Positions 5,920 through 17,203 of a DNA stretch of 64,000 nucleotides are shown here, piece by piece. The translations under genes and the position numbers were made by a program. Location of the stretch: positions 5,673 to 69,672 of the IMG/VR virus record IMGVR_UViG_3300042295_001370; one strand, 5' to 3'. Each line of letters starts with the position of its first letter. Positions within the stretch are counted from its first letter, which is position 1. The stretch is from a virus. Lineage: Duplodnaviria > Heunggongvirae > Uroviricota > Caudoviricetes. The notes beneath the pieces are model-generated. The model was given only the letters and a program-made list of their open reading frames with translations, searched no databases and was not told the origin of the DNA.

Positions 5920-7677
5920 TTACTGTGTTTCAGTTGGAGGTGTTTCAGCACCTGGAGCAACTTCAGGTGTTTCAAATCCCGGTGTCTCAAGCGGGGCTTC
6001 AGGAGGCATCTCAGGTCCACCCATACCAAAATCAGGCTCTGGTGAAGGGCGTATCCCTATTGATCCCAGTCCCACACCCCTGTCTTCAATGGGGCTGGTG
6101 CCAGTCTTGCCTTTGACTTTGTCGTTGTTTTCTTCTTTCCACATCCGCTCATTTTCCAGAATATCTTCTTCTGTCCATCCTAGATAACGCTTGAGCGCAT
6201 ATCTCTTGCTCATGTAAGCTCTTGCATCACTGTTCATAGCTGAACTGAAGAGGTTAACACGCTCAGTGTCAATGCTCATGTTGCGATATTGACTGAAACT
6301 TTGTGGAACGTTAAATGCCAACTCAAACAAACTGCTGTGTACCTCAATGCCACGGAACTTCAAAAACAATTTAAATTCCATATCCAATGTTGGCGCAAGA
6401 CTGTTCTGCAATCTTTGGCAATATTTGTTGAATCTATACTCTTGGATAAATGCTGTTCCCACTTTGCCATCGTTGTAAACTGCTGTGCCATCATCTGGTC
6501 CAGTGGGCAAATAGCTGCTGGGAATACCCAGCCCGCGCATCAACTTGTTGTTGAAGTATTTCAAGTCGTCAATAGTGCCCAAGTTTTCGCCAGCGTTCAA
6601 AGTGTCAATAGTTGTGCCGCGTTGTTCACTGTTGGTTGCAAGGAAGAAATCTTCTGTAATGCTTATGGGATTATAGGCGCTGTCAATAATACTTGAGCCA
6701 CCACCTGTGCGGTTTGGGAGTCGCCTTTGGTAAATTTCGTTTTTGACTCTTTCAACATACTGCATGGCACGTTGACCTTGCAGCTGACCCACGTCAATCT
6801 TAAACACTCTGCGCTCAGGTGCACGCACAATACGGTAAATGAGAATGCAGTCTTCCAAAAGGTCTTTTTGTTTGTAAGTTTTGTAAACTGCTTCAATGAT
6901 GCTGGTGCCAAAAGGCCAATATTGATCCAAGCCTTCACTTAAACTGAGATGCACCACGTGGTTGGCATCAATTGCCATGCTGTTGGCTGGATTGTAAAAT
7001 CTGCTGGTACGGCCGCCAGGTGTTGTGGGCTGTCCATAGTTGATGTTGCCTGCACCAGCTGCTGGGTTCGCACTACGAGGGTAACCTCCTGGGAAACTGT
7101 ATTGATCATGCACAAGAGGGTTGGTTGCCACTAGACTTTGTAAATTGAAATCCAAATCTCTAATCACATATTGTTCAATTTTTTTGCCTTGTGCCTCATT
7201 GACAATGATTTTTTCCACTTTGGCTGAATCTACCCACAACAGCTCATAGGTTTCTGGATCTCGGACGAAAAATTGATCACCGTATTTGACAGTATTACGG
7301 AATATTTTGAAGATTCGTTGATTCAGTTTATTGATGCTGCACCATTGTTGAAGTGCACTGGCCAAAAGTTCTGTTTCAGTTTCAGTAACATCACCTTTCC
7401 AAATAAATCGGAAAGGAATAGGCTCATCATCACTTTGGTTTTGTGTGCAGAACTCAGCAATAGTGTCCAAGCTGCGATTGATTTCACTATCTAAATCAGC
7501 TTGTTCATAAGCCACATAGCGTTCAACTCGGTTTGGAGCACCAGCATAGACTTCAGGCAAATAACTGCTGAATTTTGTAGTGGTTGCACCTTGACTGTTG
7601 TCTTTGTTGATTTCTGCTAGTCTTGCAGTGAGTCTAGCTTGACTCGGTACTGTTGTGAAATATTTTTTCCAAGCCAT
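5920..7677 (-). CDS. gp20: Portal vertex protein, T4 gp20-like
   Basis: Motifs IYRIVRAPERRVFKIDVG, EDFF, IDTL..GENLG.IDDLKYF..KL.RGL.IP.S. Confidence 0.95.
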   Translation of the reverse strand: MAWKKYFTTVPSQARLTARLAEINKDNSQGATTTKFSSYLPEVYAGAPNRVERYVAYEQADLDSEINRSLDTIAEFCTQNQSDDEPIPFRFIWKGDVTETETELLASALQQWCSINKLNQRIFKIFRNTVKYGDQFFVRDPETYELLWVDSAKVEKIIVNEAQGKKIEQYVIRDLDFNLQSLVATNPLVHDQYSFPGGYPRSANPAAGAGNINYGQPTTPGGRTSRFYNPANSMAIDANHVVHLSLSEGLDQYWPFGTSIIEAVYKTYKQKDLLEDCILIYRIVRAPERRVFKIDVGQLQGQRAMQYVERVKNEIYQRRLPNRTGGGSSIIDSAYNPISITEDFFLATNSEQRGTTIDTLNAGENLGTIDDLKYFNNKLMRGLGIPSSYLPTGPDDGTAVYNDGKVGTAFIQEYRFNKYCQRLQNSLAPTLDMEFKLFLKFRGIEVHSSLFELAFNVPQSFSQYRNMSIDTERVNLFSSAMNSDARAYMSKRYALKRYLGWTEEDILENERMWKEENNDKVKGKTGTSPIEDRGVGLGSIGIRPSPEPDFGMGGPEMPPEAPLETPGFETPEVAPGAETPPTETQ

Positions 7678-10153: not shown

Positions 10154-10987
10154 ATGAGTAATCCATTGAGTCAATACTTTCACACACCCAAGGCCTATGC
10201 ACAATTGCCAACACGAGGCAAATTTTATCCTAGTGATTTCCTTGAGACTTCAGCCAATGGCGAAATGGCAGTGTATCCGTTGACTGCTATTGATCAAATC
10301 ATGTTGAAAACTCCTGATGCGCTGTTGAATGGCGATGCATTGTTGAGTGTTTTCCGAAACTGTGTTCCTGGAGTCAAAGATCCCAAGAAGCTTGTGGAGC
10401 CTGACATCAACACCCTACTTGTTGCCATAAGAATTGCCAGTGCAGGGTCAACTATGGAAATAGACACCACATGTCCCAGTTGTGGAAAAGAGCACAACTT
10501 TGGTATAGACCTCTCTGCATTTATCGAAACACAAACTTATGTTGAAGGCCCCACCTATATTGAAATAGATGGAGCACTCCAAGTTTTCCTGCGTCCTTAC
10601 AACTTTGAGCAGAGAAATCTACAACTGTTGAATGAAGTGGAACAAGCCAGAAGCATCAAAGTGTTACAAGAAACAGACACAACTGATGCAGAAAAGATCA
10701 GTAGTGTGACCAAACAAGTGAATCACATGGCCAAACGCACATTGGACATCATGGCCATGAGCATAACTGAAATCAAAATAATCAGTAGTGGTGAACTGGT
10801 CACCAATCAAGAATACATTCAAGAGTTTGTGAAAGGTATTCCCACAACCAGTGCCAACGCCATCATCGACAAGTTGAAAGAGCTCAACAAAACTGGTATT
10901 GATACCGAAACCTCTTTTCAATGCGACGGTTGCTCACACACTTGGAGCCAGTCAATTGACTTTGATCCCACAAGTTTTTTCGACTAA
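10154..10987 (+). CDS. gp26: Baseplate hub assembly / tail chaperone, T4 gp26-like
   Basis: NPLSQYF..PK.Y..LPT.GKFY, P.T..DQI.LKTPDALLNG, IRIAS.G and CPSC motifs. Confidence 0.8.
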   Translation: MSNPLSQYFHTPKAYAQLPTRGKFYPSDFLETSANGEMAVYPLTAIDQIMLKTPDALLNGDALLSVFRNCVPGVKDPKKLVEPDINTLLVAIRIASAGSTMEIDTTCPSCGKEHNFGIDLSAFIETQTYVEGPTYIEIDGALQVFLRPYNFEQRNLQLLNEVEQARSIKVLQETDTTDAEKISSVTKQVNHMAKRTLDIMAMSITEIKIISSGELVTNQEYIQEFVKGIPTTSANAIIDKLKELNKTGIDTETSFQCDGCSHTWSQSIDFDPTSFFD

Positions 10988-11035: not shown

Positions 11036-11220
11036 GCGAAAAAGAAGTGGAAATGATTGAAAGCGATATTGCCAACCTAGTGTATTACATGAACGGAGGA
11101 CTCACCTACAGTGAAGCTTGGCGTCTCACCACTTCACAGATGAAATCTTTGAGTGGAACTATTTCCAAACACTATGAGATGCAAGCCGAAGCTTATAGGA
11201 AGGCTCAATCAAAGAAGTGA
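10981..11220 (+). CDS. gp51-like chaperone extension in the -1 frame (not in ORF track)
   Basis: 79-codon open frame RLKLLRG...LVYYMNGGLTYSEAWRLT...KK*; first ATG is 24 codons in. Confidence 0.7.
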   Translation, partial: RLKLLRGDHVAITQVLRSCEKEVEMIESDIANLVYYMNGGLTYSEAWRLTTSQMKSLSGTISKHYEMQAEAYRKAQSKK

Positions 11221-11329
11221 TAATTTTAGCTGGGCGTGATCTAGTATGAATCTCAATGATCTTATTGATGATATTATTGGATCTGGAATAGGATACTTGT
11301 TGGACTGATAATAGTTCTGGGTATTTCGT

Positions 11330-11700
11330 TAGGGAGGAAGTCACACTTCTCCCCACCGGGAGGAGAAGTGTGAAAAGGCTTTCGTATAGGGCTTCGGCCT
11401 GCCTGTCTCGTCTTGGGAATTGCTTCCAGCTGGCGGAGAACCTATTTCCAGCGTTCCTGACTCTCTTCTCGGACTTATGCTCATGGAGCTGCCTTCTCGG
11501 TTATGTGCTCATCACACACGCAGGGAATTCAGTCAGACAGGCTGTTGACTGAACCCCTTCCAGCGTCACGGGACAGTGAGAGGCTGGATCCTTTTTGTTC
11601 ACTTTTGTGGCGAGGGCATAGAACCGTAAACCCTCATACGCAATTTTCCCCGGCCTTCGCGCCTGGTAGATACGGATGGACACTACACCATCATATAAAG
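11330..11700. ncRNA. Putative structured non-coding RNA, unknown family
   Basis: GC-rich intergenic stretch with hairpins TCACACTTCTCC/GGAGAAGTGTGA, GGC-TTCG-GCC, TTCAGTCA/TGACTGAA, TCCAGC/GCTGGA, GAGGG/CCCTC; no credible ORF. Confidence 0.5.
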
Positions 11701-11726
11701 CCACTATGTTTTAAAAATATACTCTG

Positions 11727-12536
11727 TTATGCGTAGTTGCTGATTCTATAATTGCCTGGACTACGTGCTGTGCTGTCTAGATATTTCAAAAGATAATTGT
11801 TTTTTGTATTTTTGAAGTCAATTACCCAAGGTGTGTTGTATTCACAGAATCTACCACTCTCTTGCTTGACTATTGCTGTTGTCCATCGATTGTATTCGTT
11901 AAGGTTAAAATGCGGAATAATAATGGGTTTTGTAGTTAACGGAGTCCAAATTTCTGTATGTTGTTCAGTGTTGTTGTATTTGTATTTGATTTCATTACGA
12001 GGGATCTGTGCATGACGTTTGTTGCTGATTTCCAACTCACTCAAGCTGCTGGGTGGTGTCTTGTAAGCCACCTCAATTATATCGCTTGATTGGGGATGAG
12101 CCAAAATGTCTGCTTGCTCTTTGTAAAAATCAATAACTGCTCTAGCCATCTGTTTTTTGGCTTCTGGAATCATAATCCAGCGATTGGCTCCGGCAGATTC
12201 AAACATCATAATTTGCGCTTCGGTCAAAATTGTTTTTTGTGTGAGTCTGTCAAAAGCAACTGGAAAATAACTTTTCAGTTGTTCAGGCCATTCTTGAGGC
12301 TTTTTCACCAATTCGCGAATGTTGAGATTGTATTTGGCTAGATCACAAAAGAGTGATGCTTGATCGTGTGTGATGTTGAGAATAGTTTGTGGAAATGCTC
12401 TTACACGACTTCCAAAGGTTCCTACAAGGGTATTGTAAAATCCCAACTCTTGTCGGAAAAAACTATTGAGCCGATTTTGATCTACTGGATCAACTACAAT
12501 AAAAATGCTGCGGTGTTGTGGCTTGTTGTGCTTCAT
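11727..12536 (-). CDS. Hypothetical protein, possible TnpB N-terminal-like fold lacking RuvC
   Basis: Likely start MKHNKPQHR at 12536 below a TTGATT-17-TATAAT promoter (12561-12589); TnpB resemblance is pattern-level only. Confidence 0.6.
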   Translation of the reverse strand: MKHNKPQHRSIFIVVDPVDQNRLNSFFRQELGFYNTLVGTFGSRVRAFPQTILNITHDQASLFCDLAKYNLNIRELVKKPQEWPEQLKSYFPVAFDRLTQKTILTEAQIMMFESAGANRWIMIPEAKKQMARAVIDFYKEQADILAHPQSSDIIEVAYKTPPSSLSELEISNKRHAQIPRNEIKYKYNNTEQHTEIWTPLTTKPIIIPHFNLNEYNRWTTAIVKQESGRFCEYNTPWVIDFKNTKNNYLLKYLDSTARSPGNYRISNYA

Positions 12537-12628
12537 TTGAAATGCTCTTTTGTTATTTTGATTATAGCCATCTAAAACTATAAAATCAAAGACTTCCAGA
12601 GCTTTTTCTGGATTACAGGAAAAAACAT

Positions 12629-12715
12629 ATGGCAGGGTCCAAAGGCAAGGCAAAAGGAAATGCAGGCGAATTACGGATAGCCAAGTTTCTCACAACGTTA
12701 TATGAAGCCAAATTT
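12629..12715 (+). pseudogene. 5' fragment of a disrupted Holliday junction resolvase
   Basis: AGGA RBS then MAGSKGKAKGNAGELRIAKFLTTLYEAKF, the K.KG...E..IA..L start of this resolvase family. Confidence 0.8.
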
Positions 12716-13205
12716 AATCAAAAAAATAGGTGTCAGGCTGTTGCATCAAATTATCAAGCTTGTATAGGTTAAACCCTTTGTAGTGCAGAATAAGATTACC
12801 TTGCGGGAGCAAGTCTGCCAAAAGGACTAAATCAGGAACATTGTTATATTTGATTATTAGCAATACCTTTTTTCCAGCACTTTGCGCGTCTTGCACAGCT
12901 TGATCAATCCATTCATCCCATGCAGTAATTTTTTGGTTCACTAACGCAGTAAATGTGGGAGGTGTTTTATTGTGTTTGCACTCTATGCTAAATTTGAAGT
13001 GTTTTGGACATATTATATCGCCAAACACTGCATAATCTAAATTATGCGTCTGAAGTTTAGCTATATTTGATCCTCCAAAGTAACTACCGCTATCGGGATT
13101 ACGTCTAAATCCTTTGTCCTCGTTCAATAATGATTTGAACTTTCCAGATAGGAGATTGGAAATCTTCCTCTCATAAGTGTTACCTTTATTTTTACTGTTC
13201 ATCAC
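12714..13205 (-). CDS. Holliday junction resolvase, PD-(D/E)xK (intact copy)
   Basis: SKNKGNTYERKIS..RRNPDSGSYFGG..GDIICP..SIECK. Confidence 0.8.
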   Translation of the reverse strand: MMNSKNKGNTYERKISNLLSGKFKSLLNEDKGFRRNPDSGSYFGGSNIAKLQTHNLDYAVFGDIICPKHFKFSIECKHNKTPPTFTALVNQKITAWDEWIDQAVQDAQSAGKKVLLIIKYNNVPDLVLLADLLPQGNLILHYKGFNLYKLDNLMQQPDTYFFD

Positions 13206-14028
13206 AAACTTCCGTAAACACCATCATATAATAATCCCATTTGTTCTTAATTTGCCAAACTAATGAGTAATCAACATCTAATTGTTTGGCTATTTGTTTA
13301 ACATCATATCCAGCAGTTAAGCTTTCCAATATGCTCTTATATATGTGAGGATTGGCGCGTATTTTAATTTTTTGTAATTCAATGCCCCTTCTGACATTTG
13401 AGAGTCTAGTAGCCTGTTTGTGTTGTTCAGTTTGATTTTTATTTCTCTCTGATATGCGAACGGACGCTTGAATTCTTCGTTGTTCAGAGAATGAATCTTT
13501 AAATTTTTGAATAGTTTCAGGGCTGCGTTTATATCCTTTTTCTCTCGGACATTTCTCTGACAAAATTTTACGTGTCTCTTCAGTGTGAGTCTTACCGTAA
13601 AACCCATTAAGTGGTCCTTTGCGACCTTTTGATGGATTCGGACCGCGCATCTTTTGTTTAGTTTCTTCAGATCTTGGTGACATTACTTGAAGCTTCCGCT
13701 TAGCCTTAATTTTGAGCCTAGTTGAGAGCGGCATAGGAATCTCAAATCTCTTACGCTTCAACCATCCGTATAATTTATTATTCCGTTGGTTTCCGACAGT
13801 CATCATAAATGCAGCATAAACGAGTTTTGCATTATCTGGATGCATCTTCATCAATAATAAATGAGCCACAAAGTGTTCTTCAGGTGTTAATACTGCTAAA
13901 TTTTCAGGGTTATCATCACCGCCTATACATCTAGGAACAATATGATGAATTTCTGTGTACACTGCGATAGGTCCAAACCTAGACTGTGCTGTTTCAATCA
14001 AGCTCTTATAAATCTTTGAATAATTCAT
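13192..14028 (-). CDS. HNH homing endonuclease with NUMOD3-type repeats
   Basis: EIHHIVPRCIGG.D...NL..LT.EEHF.AH; later FYGKTHTEETR motif. Confidence 0.9.
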   Translation of the reverse strand: MNYSKIYKSLIETAQSRFGPIAVYTEIHHIVPRCIGGDDNPENLAVLTPEEHFVAHLLLMKMHPDNAKLVYAAFMMTVGNQRNNKLYGWLKRKRFEIPMPLSTRLKIKAKRKLQVMSPRSEETKQKMRGPNPSKGRKGPLNGFYGKTHTEETRKILSEKCPREKGYKRSPETIQKFKDSFSEQRRIQASVRISERNKNQTEQHKQATRLSNVRRGIELQKIKIRANPHIYKSILESLTAGYDVKQIAKQLDVDYSLVWQIKNKWDYYMMVFTEVCDEQ

Positions 14029-14063: not shown

Positions 14064-14082
14064 GGTGGCAATAATAATTTAT

Positions 14083-14496
14083 TCTGGTGCCTTCATTGGA
14101 GGAGCAAACACCAAGAGAAAAGACACTATGGATGCTACGCAAATCAGCTACTTCAAAAGTGATCTCATTCCACCTTCCCATATGAAAAAGCTGGTGATTG
14201 AAAGTAAGTTTTATCAAGACTTTCCGTGGCATCGACTCATGTGCAATGGAGATATCAAACAACTGGATGCTTGGATAGAGCAAACACTTGACACATGTGA
14301 TCCAGAAGATTTGTGGTTTGTTGTCATACGCATCAATCACAAAGGAAGTTATGCTTGTTTTGATCAAAAACATTTGGCTGACTTCACGGTTGAAAACCAC
14401 GCACGTTACAAAACCTTTGTAATAACAGAGTTTGAGCCATTTTTTGAACAAAACAAGCTGAAGATTGCTGAACTGAGTTATACTGCTGGTGTATAA
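14083..14496 (+). pseudogene. 3' fragment of the disrupted Holliday junction resolvase
   Basis: Begins SGAFIGGAN..SDLIPP..LVIESKFY..DAWIEQ; lacks the N-terminal motif found at 12629. Confidence 0.8.
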
Positions 14497-14511: not shown

Positions 14512-15336
14512 CTATAGTAGTTGGTTAGGTTGAGTTTTGCAATTAGGACCATGCCATCTGATATAGTTCGCTAAACCAAAGATATTCCCGCAATGTTCAC
14601 AAGTTTGTTTTGTTGCTTCGAATATCTGTGCTCTCTTCTTCAAAATTTCTTCAGAGACTTTTTGGCCAGACCTTACTGCGGACATTCGGACTCCAAAGCC
14701 TGCAGGTTTTTTCTTGCCTCGATTTGCTAAACTTATCTTTTCTTTGGTCTCAGCAGACAGACTTCGTCCCCGAGATTTTTGTGAGCGTGCAGCTCGCATC
14801 TCTTCTGCTTTTGGGCCATAAATTTCTTCATAGGACCTGCCTTTTTTAGCTTCGCTCATTTTAGATCTAGCTTCATCAGAATGCTTTTTGCCATATAACG
14901 GATGATTCTCTCCTGACCTGTCGATAAGAGATAATGCATCTTTTATGTTCTTGATTGTTTCTGCACTTCTTTTTTTGCCACAATTGTTAACACTTGCTTT
15001 CATTCTTGATTCATCAGAGACTATCTTCCCAACTGCCCCATCCCCGCCATCAGTTCGATTGTGTAATATACCTGTGTTATTATCCAGGCGTCCCCACCAG
15101 AGTATCAGCCTTCTTTCGAGCGCAACAGCACCAAGATTAGTTAATCCTTGTTCAAGGACAACAATCCTCCATGCTTCTTTTGGTACAGGTAGAGTTCCGT
15201 GGTTTTCTTTGTAACGTATGCCGGTCCCTTTTCCAATATAATAAGGGGTTCCTGCAGGACCATTGTTGGATGTTGTTTTTCTTAAGTAGGCATACACATA
15301 AAACCCAAAGGGTTTGATATTACGATAAATAGACAT
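14512..15336 (-). CDS. GIY-YIG homing endonuclease (Seg-like) with NUMOD3 repeats
   Basis: FYVYAYLR..PYYIGKG, LHNRTDGGDG, HSDEARSKMSEAKKG; start MSIYRN after AAGGGAG. Confidence 0.9.
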   Translation of the reverse strand: MSIYRNIKPFGFYVYAYLRKTTSNNGPAGTPYYIGKGTGIRYKENHGTLPVPKEAWRIVVLEQGLTNLGAVALERRLILWWGRLDNNTGILHNRTDGGDGAVGKIVSDESRMKASVNNCGKKRSAETIKNIKDALSLIDRSGENHPLYGKKHSDEARSKMSEAKKGRSYEEIYGPKAEEMRAARSQKSRGRSLSAETKEKISLANRGKKKPAGFGVRMSAVRSGQKVSEEILKKRAQIFEATKQTCEHCGNIFGLANYIRWHGPNCKTQPNQLL

Positions 15337-15421
15337 AGCTGTTGCTCCCTTAAAGCGATAGAGCCGGTGGACCTGCCAGGGTCGTGACCGGCATATATCT
15401 ATATTTATGGAGTACAGATAA

Positions 15422-17203
15422 TTACTCACCGCTTTCATAGCTGAAACGAGTGAAACCTAACTCTTTGATAACATACAAAACTCGATCGCAGCGACTTGTT
15501 AGCTCTTCTCTATGTGAGATCAACAAAATGTTCTTGTTCCGATCTCTGCTCATAGCCTTAAGCGTCTCTAGAGATCTTTCAAGTCCTGTGCTGTCAAGTC
15601 CCACATCAAGGATCTCATCAACAGCCATGAAGTTGATGCTGGTGTTCATGTTTTCAAAAATGTCTCGGAATGCCCAGCTGAGTGCCAAACAAACTCTTGT
15701 GCGTTCACCTCGGCTGAGACTGTCAAAGTCAAAGTCTACGCCCATATGCATGATCTCAACTCCCAAGTCGTTGCTGAATTTAACTTGGTGTGGCAACATC
15801 AATCCAGCTAGATATTCACCCAGTCTGTGATTCAAGTAGCTGAGGTTTTGATCAATAATACGCTTTCGGATGAAGCTGTCTTTGTTTGTTAGCAGCTTCA
15901 AGAGAAACTCTTGATGGTCTTTGAGTTGGCTGAGTTCATTTAGTGAATCATAAGTGACTTCTTGCAGTGTGTCATTTAAATTACCCACTTGGGCTTGATA
16001 AGGATTGGTTTCAAGCTTAAGTTTGTCCAGTTCACCACTAAGAAGTGTGAGACTGTTTCGATGCTCATATGCCTCATCAATGCTTTTGTAAAATGTTTGG
16101 TTTAGCGATACAGCACTAGACAGACCCATGAGCTCATCCAGTTCTTGTGTCAAACTCAGGCATTCCTGTTCCAGTGTTTGAATGCTGCTGTCCAGTTTGG
16201 TAATTTTGTGCTCAAGGTCGTCCAGCAGATGTGTTTGTTTCTCGTCATGAATCTTTTGACCACACATTGCGCAGTTGTGGTCTTGAATTTGACTATACTG
16301 AGTTAACCAGTTGTTTTGTTGCGCCTTCAGCTGTGTTCCATGCTGTGTTTTTGTTTGGCTTTGGCTGCGCACATTCTTCAATGCTGTTTGAAGTTCACGA
16401 TACACAAGATTGTCTTTGTGACTTTGAATTTCCTGCTCAACATCAAGATGACTCAAAGCATCTAGTGCATTTTCCAAGTCTTGAATTTTGTTCTGATGTT
16501 GAGTATCCCACTGTTGGGTTTTTTGATTCAAACTTTCAATAGTGCTCAAAATACGTGTATTGCTGTTTTTGATAGTATGTATTTTGAACTCTTCTTGTTC
16601 AATAGTTTGTTTGGTTGTTTGAATAAGCTTTTTGAGGTTTTCTGCCTTCTGAGACAGTAATGTAATTCCCAACAGCTCTTCAATTATTTCTCGCTGTTTT
16701 CCAGCACCCATGCTCAAAAATGGCTCAGTATAGGTGTTCAAAGCCACAATGTGTTTGAACATGGTGTGGCTGATGCCCAATACCTTCTCAATCTCTTTCT
16801 GAGTATCTTTGTTTTCGCCTTGAGCTTCGTCTGCACTTTTGTTTTCATTTACTGATTCATCATTTACAACATAGCGGAAAAAACTAGGGGCACGGCCACG
16901 TTCAATTTTGTAGCTGTTGCCGTGGGCTTCAAACTCAATACTCACCACCATGTTCTTTTTGTTGATGCTGTTGATGAGATTGTTTTTCTTGATGTTAGTA
17001 AGAGCTTGACCATACAGGGCATAACAAATGGCTGAAATCAGCGTCGATTTGCCAACACCATTCCGGTTGCCGTTGCCGCCCAAGTCTAGATTCTCGCCCA
17101 ATACAAGAGTCAAGCCAGGTTGTGTGAGAGTAACTGATTGTGTAACAGCACCCACACTCATGAAGTTTTTGATTGTGACGTTTTTGAGGATGATCAAGTT
17201 CAA
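15422..17203 (-). CDS. gp46: Recombination endonuclease ATPase subunit (gp46/SbcC/Rad50)
   Basis: Walker A NGVGKST, coiled coil with CAMC zinc hook, LSRGE signature, Walker B AVDEILD. Confidence 0.95.
   Translation of the reverse strand: MNLIILKNVTIKNFMSVGAVTQSVTLTQPGLTLVLGENLDLGGNGNRNGVGKSTLISAICYALYGQALTNIKKNNLINSINKKNMVVSIEFEAHGNSYKIERGRAPSFFRYVVNDESVNENKSADEAQGENKDTQKEIEKVLGISHTMFKHIVALNTYTEPFLSMGAGKQREIIEELLGITLLSQKAENLKKLIQTTKQTIEQEEFKIHTIKNSNTRILSTIESLNQKTQQWDTQHQNKIQDLENALDALSHLDVEQEIQSHKDNLVYRELQTALKNVRSQSQTKTQHGTQLKAQQNNWLTQYSQIQDHNCAMCGQKIHDEKQTHLLDDLEHKITKLDSSIQTLEQECLSLTQELDELMGLSSAVSLNQTFYKSIDEAYEHRNSLTLLSGELDKLKLETNPYQAQVGNLNDTLQEVTYDSLNELSQLKDHQEFLLKLLTNKDSFIRKRIIDQNLSYLNHRLGEYLAGLMLPHQVKFSNDLGVEIMHMGVDFDFDSLSRGERTRVCLALSWAFRDIFENMNTSINFMAVDEILDVGLDSTGLERSLETLKAMSRDRNKNILLISHREELTSRCDRVLYVIKELGFTRFSYESGE

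Follow-up and report, generated by a model that had tools for sequence, protein, structure and literature searches.

What is the structured interval that lies between a T4-like baseplate hub gene and a gene for a small basic protein in the genome of an uncultured phage, and has it anything to do with that protein? The window considered here (the whole stretch of DNA analysed, 64,000 nt) comes from a viral record of 133,672 nt which is estimated to be 30% complete and is therefore assigned to a jumbo phage. A sequence-only reading had proposed a candidate novel structured RNA of about 370 nt at 11330-11700, and all the details it listed were found again. The gap is indeed richer in GC than its flanks (52.4% vs 41.1% and 37.2%), the hairpin at 11341-11373 has 12 perfect pairs, or 14 with one bulge (-22.3 kcal/mol), and the complementary segments TTCAGTCA (11528) and TGACTGAA (11546), TCCAGC (11559) and GCTGGA (11583), GAGGG (11612) and CCCTC (11631) are all in place, as is TTCCAGC in three copies (11424, 11446 and 11558). 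The CUUCGG loop is present at 11392, on a stem of merely 3 bp. As for the extent, the region is structured as described, with conserved limits shifted to 11707-11319 (389 nt). The features of the locus are collected in Table 1.

Table 1. Features of the locus, in window coordinates
Feature	Position	Strand	Remarks
T4-like portal gene	5920-7677		near the RNA element
T4-like baseplate hub gene	10154..10987	+	PF12322 and phrog_150
57-aa ORF, conserved, convergent	11047..11220	+	tblastn in syntenic loci
Variable 3' flank	11221..11318	.	98 nt here; -1 to 18 nt in 16/26 loci
Structured ncRNA, conserved, 389 nt (type A)	11319..11707	-	profile limits, homologs, pair counts, own-vs-swapped pairing
Short repeat R2	11322..11333	-	conservation ends here (3'); putative short guide or binding site
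Last long hairpin	11341..11373	-	between R1 and R2
Short repeat R1	11379..11390	-	before the last hairpin
Conserved core (UAACC, PK2, P10, P12)	11410..11503	-
Invariant UAACC	11503-11499		directly ahead of PK2
Pseudoknot PK2	11498-11494 with 11440-11436		inside the P10 loop
Helices P6 and P7	11522..11587	-
Pseudoknot PK3, long-range	11542-11537 with 11406-11401		first strand in the P7 loop
Invariant AGG	11590..11592	-	predicted long-range pairing with 11333-11331, just before R2 (RNAalifold)
5' domain (P1, P2, P3, P5, PK1)	11597..11707	-
Closing helix P1	11704-11700 with 11611-11607		98.5% of cells paired, two-sided changes
Pseudoknot PK1	11624-11621 with 11600-11597		own 5.8 bp vs swapped 4.1, 0/10000
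269-aa half-TnpB ORF	11727..12536	-
Sigma70-type promoter-like site	12561..12589	-	upstream of the 269-aa gene; 10/12 consensus matches only
Resolvase-like PD-(D/E)XK paralogs (two)	12714-13205 and 14065-14496
gp46-like ATPase gene			near the RNA element

Searching GenBank phages with the DNA alone found nothing, and the homolog search was therefore seeded with the upstream protein, which has 170 representatives when clustered at 50%. With a profile built from the DNA downstream of the gene, the element, here called type A, was recovered in full or in part from a further 34 distinct sequences (18 being less than 85% identical), and it could be traced down to about 25% identity of the accompanying protein; no relatives were found in GenBank phages and GTDB genomes. 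Two loci outside the training set of the covariance model scored 93 and 101 bits. Conservation against the relative L004 is higher in the RNA (96%) than in the genes on either side of it (about 83%). Most indels break the frame (256 out of 313 are not a multiple of 3), and a protein-coding reading was rejected on this ground. No match to Rfam was obtained at either gathering or E-value thresholds, GOLLD, ROOL, OLE, HEARO and RAGATH-18 included, the best weak match being to a generic hairpin (23.5 bits, cut-off 47). ARAGORN found neither tRNA genes in the window nor a tmRNA, in line with the earlier impression, and searches of Pfam, PHROGs, NCBIfam, PDB by single sequence and ESM Atlas by features yielded nothing useful. 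Nor was any likeness to twister, HDV-like ribozymes, RNase P or group I/II cores supported. The RNA lies outside every Rfam family, and the literature searched, outside the catalogue of 10,000 candidate viral RNAs (PMC10690425), yielded no description of it. We regard the RNA as almost certainly real, and apparently as an undescribed class found beside a TnpB derivative without nuclease lobe.

Covariation was tested on a sequence-only alignment of 26 loci from related phages. As a whole, 84% of the alignment cells are paired, and 63 of the 81 proposed pairs show two-sided changes. None of 500 shuffles reached the observed pairing and slid registers gave 41-45%, both controls flattering the structure somewhat, since it was drawn from the 26 tested sequences themselves. 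In a test that depends little on alignment, ten helices each paired better with their own partner than with that of another phage (0/10000 each). Strong covariation, the empty Rfam search and the mostly frame-breaking indels uphold the proposal of a novel structured ncRNA. Helix P2 is paired in 99.2% of cells, with two-sided changes, P10 in 95% and P12 in 97%. Three pseudoknots are among the covarying helices. PK2 is 100% paired, with two-sided change in 4 of its 5 pairs; PK3, which spans about 130 nt, is 88.5% paired with two-sided change in 6/6 pairs, and forms 8.1 bp with its own partner vs 4.5 when swapped (0/10000). The predicted contact of the invariant AGG is present in 100% of the loci, two of its pairs never varying and the third varying on one side only (GC in 14, GU in 12), and is modestly favoured. 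A possible base triple between 11690 and 11643 rests on few changes.

The strand had been left uncertain, with the gene context speaking for minus and the UUCG loop for plus. The former indication stood; the latter failed, the loop being kept in 2/26 homologs and thus uninformative on strand. The element is very likely a minus-strand RNA, because G-U exceeds A-C by 80 to 39 when read on that strand and the consensus folding energy is lower there (-35.4 vs -22.7 on the plus strand). Minus-strand folding of 11320-11730 beats shuffles (z -2.51, 0/100), while plus-strand folding hardly does so (z -1.35, 7/100); single-sequence folding z-scores across the homologs did not separate the strands (-2.7 vs -2.9). 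A discrete minus-strand transcript is predicted, and we infer its transcription from these patterns.

R1 and R2 have the same 5-nt core in 26/26 loci, over 9 variants, and their common stretch is 6.9 nt within a locus vs 4.4 when swapped (0/10000). Several of the cores are partly palindromic, and the three bases ahead of the R2 core are those predicted to pair with the invariant AGG (11592-11590). No complementary strand for R1/R2 at a fixed place inside the RNA was found. This joint change might mean that one protein binds at both repeats, that one repeat is a short guide and the other its cis site, or that the two make a symmetric contact of tertiary or multimer type; we infer a guide role of R2 as a putative one. 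The longest guide matches in the own record, 30% complete, were 12-14 nt, near chance and without a common flank, and among 35 local windows no consistent target was found, whether for the flank or for R1/R2. Enrichment of the R core was absent (z 0.9), and the sole matching site found for R2 is R1, in its own locus; a look-alike at 11904 was set aside, as it lies inside coding sequence. A short fixed guide is possible in principle, and R2 would be a candidate, because TldRs, which carry a C-terminal truncation, work with 9-nt guides and a 6-nt seed (10.1101/2023.11.30.569447; PMC13622181).

Beyond R2 the sequence varies. In 16/26 loci the RNA is separated from the convergent stop by 18 nt or less, and the identity between some relatives drops at this flank. 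In the pairs L037/L077 and L044/L045, in particular, identity stays at 90-100% over the RNA and the 2 kb upstream of it, then drops to about 60% where the RNA ends on its 3' side. This end is a junction of the recombination and virion modules, produced by real crossover or by chimeric assembly, and the variable flank therefore need not be a guide. In the window the flank (11221-11318) is AT-rich and exceeds its counterparts in L004 and a read-set contig by about 80 nt.

The RNA starts 20 nt past the stop of the 269-aa gene, of which the 134-kb record has one copy. The encoded protein is basic, and its predicted model has a pLDDT of 92.8. In a structural search (VIA) the top 30 matches were all TnpB/Cas12/Fanzor, unrelated folds appearing from Z 4.9, and residues 3-243 superposed on residues 1-173 of ISDra2 TnpB (Z 10.1, rmsd 4.0, 170 residues). 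The 27 top matches by Foldseek were again TnpB/Cas12/Fanzor, none reaching E 0.001, and the sequence profile weakly matched the Fanzor1 N-terminus (E 8e-4). The ORF stops about 25 residues beyond the WED match, ahead of RuvC. Across the protein family (150 members of 237-345 aa, median pI 9.3) the basic charge is kept in 99% and the end falls about 23 residues past the last conserved motif. As modelled, the 269-aa protein is the WED+REC lobe of TnpB/Cas12 without RuvC, here called half-TnpB. Weak tests found no longer form of the family and, in five records, no separate gene for the TnpB C-terminal or zinc-finger part; a census of TnpB (PMC10691335) mentions partial RuvC loss only. The RuvC-less gene, the three pseudoknots and the paired 3' repeats are additions to the sequence-only reading.

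The slot, a fixed core locus of T4-like jumbo phages, is constant, between the gp46/resolvase genes on one side and the small convergent ORF and baseplate hub on the other, at all loci with enough DNA, and every RNA copy with enough upstream DNA has the half-TnpB gene. Two pattern scans of IMG/VR made independently of the protein returned copies with the upstream gene, copies cut by a contig end and chance matches only, and the 26 matches of a scan of cellular genomes were all due to chance. In the close group the RNA lies on the strand of the gene, 16-135 nt past its stop. Identity of the RNA follows that of the half-TnpB protein more closely than that of gp46, the resolvase or the hub (0.54 vs 0.16-0.22 as partial rank correlation, over pairs that are not independent and with a resolvase set that mixes paralogs); simple linkage may account for this, since the crossovers lie at the RNA 3' end. 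No terminator-like site was found between the gene and the RNA in this window. In L009 and L043 terminator-like hairpins lie between the gene stop and the RNA start, the one in L043 having a U-run a few bases ahead of the RNA.

Among distant relatives the content of the slot changes. Three complete or near-complete genomes have the protein and no type A RNA, and in L062 a 66-nt gap after the gene leaves no room for an RNA. L052 and L053 code for identical proteins with two unalignable RNAs alongside, their DNA being 96% identical until about 50 nt past the stop and consisting of different blocks from there on. At eight distant loci the slot is filled by types B and C, two further non-coding blocks that are conserved, and at six a hairpin and a small ORF (92-97 aa) lie between the gene and the RNA, with a promoter-like site also present in several of the six.

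Type B (L047, L048, L052, L054) extends from about +190 to +660 past the gene stop and has a PK2-like core together with covarying 8-nt repeats around the last hairpin; type C (L046, L049, L051, L053), from about +300 to +810, has two UGAAAAG-loop hairpins and a similar last hairpin. Rfam searches with both were empty. The two types share a module in the first 200 nt past the stop (L046-L049, L051-L054), made of a conserved 25-mer, a TAAATA late-promoter-like motif and a conserved hairpin, which could be the real protein partner of that clade, or a promoter. The small ORFs between the half-TnpB gene and the RNA form an unnamed basic family of 88-97 aa (L055:3371-3649, L056, L058, L060, L063, L064 and L066), for which the Pfam search was empty. 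An AT-rich gap without profile match in L007 (4780-5360), in which a 9-nt direct repeat brackets a similar last hairpin, is perhaps a far-diverged family member. By eye, type B and L007 keep the repeat-hairpin-repeat 3' end, and type B also the PK2 core with one compensatory change; the kinship of types B, C and L007 with type A is by eye only, because a covariance model of the 3' half leaves them undetected.

Among known systems, ISDra2 TnpB with its omega-RNA (IS200/IS605, PDB 8H1J) shares with this locus the WED+REC fold and a pseudoknotted, structured RNA immediately past the 3' end of the gene and on its strand. It differs in that RuvC and zinc finger are absent here, in that the locus is one fixed core locus in all relatives examined and not a mobile element, and in that the RNA has 389 nt and three pseudoknots, with no guide-target pair found. 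The system is outside TnpB/omega-RNA, because it has no RuvC and is not mobile. The RAGATH-18 reRNA of IS607 TnpB (PMC11061315, PDB 8IAZ) is likewise structured and conserved and lies downstream of a TnpB gene, whose protein fold matches ours (Z 9.3), but there the nuclease is active and here Rfam gives no match. TldR and dCas12f are domesticated, non-cutting descendants of TnpB, some of them phage-borne, at a fixed locus as here. TldR, however, has retained RuvC in degenerate form and in contact with the RNA (Wiegand et al., 10.1101/2023.11.30.569447; PMC13622181) whereas RuvC is wholly absent here; its scaffold is about 97 nt, the RNA here being about four times larger and exchangeable; and its promoter targets are mapped, none being found here in the own record and 35 windows. 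GOLLD and ROOL (10.1101/2024.12.08.627333) are also phage-encoded, hundreds of nucleotides long and rich in pseudoknots, but our RNA has no Rfam match to them, sits in a window without tRNAs and is constantly linked to a TnpB-derived gene. Type V CRISPR-Cas (Cas12f/k/n) differs as well, with just two 6-9-nt repeats around a conserved hairpin here; neither a repeat-spacer array with variable spacers nor an anti-repeat at a fixed place is present in our locus. No reverse transcriptase (PF00078), the linked gene of DRT2-like and retron template RNAs, was found in five records; the own record among them is 30% complete, and the RNA in the complete ones is of another type.

The explanation we favour, tentatively and at slightly under even odds, is a non-cutting RNA-protein complex derived from TnpB/omega-RNA; that the RNA binds the half-TnpB protein we hold to be reasonably probable. 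Gene and RNA would be co-transcribed from a host-type promoter, the basic half-protein would hold the RNA as TnpB holds omega-RNA, and the enlarged RNA might stand in for the body once given by the lost RuvC lobe, in a complex that would not cut DNA. Recognition by pairing, if any, would proceed via the very short fixed segment R2 (6-9 nt), after the AGG pair, and R1, as the site of R2 in its own locus, might make the complex act as a regulator or a roadblock where the recombination module meets the virion module. This short-guide step is the weakest part of the explanation. The complex is favoured by the RNA occupying the omega-RNA position, by the gene accompanying all RNA copies with upstream DNA, by the correlation of RNA and protein identity, by the short guides of TldR and by a protein that keeps the TnpB N-lobe fold and basic charge. 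Against it, distant relatives carry other RNAs or none in the slot, the identical proteins of L052 and L053 adjoin different RNAs, the searches of the own record and local windows gave no guide target, the RNA is some four times the size of the TldR scaffold, and the TldR RNA also binds along RuvC, missing here (PMC13622181).

The exchange of RNAs next to identical proteins (L052, L053) lends some weight to the main rival account, which we think unlikely on balance: a stand-alone, large ornate phage RNA of the GOLLD/ROOL kind in an exchangeable slot, with R1/R2 as tertiary or multimerisation contacts and the protein acting otherwise. The distant loci have a promoter-like site and an ORF of their own, several repeat cores are partly palindromic, and the size and several pseudoknots resemble those of ROOL and GOLLD, ROOL having no known protein partner (10.1101/2024.12.08.627333). 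Against this account, the element was never found away from half-TnpB; the window has no tRNA genes, TnpB-type proteins are RNA-binding by descent, and the repeat-hairpin-repeat end seen by eye in type B and L007 could be a common protein handle.

A bolder version of the favoured complex has TnpB ceding its whole nuclease lobe to RNA, the half-protein holding interchangeable large RNAs (A, B, C) of which the RNA is the active and possibly catalytic part; this we judge improbable. The evolution of CRISPR effectors is usually described as a trend of protein for RNA, and such a transfer would, if true, run counter to it. Slightly less probable still is a true ribozyme, whose core at UAACC/PK2 would replace RuvC while the half-protein holds RNA and substrate, R1 and R2 serving as processing or recognition sites. 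Invariant unpaired bases do cluster around the pseudoknot, the RNA is conserved beyond its flanking genes, the nuclease lobe is wholly lost and the TnpB zinc-finger part was not found in five records; the Rfam ribozymes, on the contrary, gave no match even at E 10, and protein contacts would explain the invariant bases equally well.

A classical repressor like TldR, with the variable sequence 3' of 11319 as guide and a host or rival-phage promoter as target, would agree with the sharp end of conservation and the variable sequence that follows it. We consider it very unlikely: 16/26 loci have 18 nt or less before the convergent stop, the divergence continues through the downstream genes, as at a module junction and not a guide swap, and a consistent target is absent from the own record and local windows. 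A DNA element (an origin or recombination site at the module boundary) would fit the crossovers clustered at the 3' end in several pairs and the strong hairpin flanked by direct repeats, but is made extremely unlikely by a one-strand bias of G-U for G-C exchanges (80 vs 39), a consensus energy of -35.4 vs -22.7, three covarying pseudoknots and GNRA/UUCG loops on the minus strand.

At least, the locus provides a well-supported new class of large structured RNA from uncultured jumbo phages, with a testable secondary structure. If the RNA binds half-TnpB, about 250 residues without RuvC suffice for an RNA-protein complex, and the domestication of TnpB can move toward more RNA and less protein, which would bear on the evolution of RNA-guided systems and could lead to a programmable binder of very small size. 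Neither the half-TnpB gene nor the RNA is too long to be synthesised.

Free-standing homing endonuclease genes, of HNH/NUMOD3 and GIY-YIG-like type, lie around the resolvase-like paralogs of the window (13192-14028 and 14512-15438); most relatives are devoid of such genes beside these paralogs. An intein-like match is seen in the portal gene of the relative L013 (L013:8629-8822).
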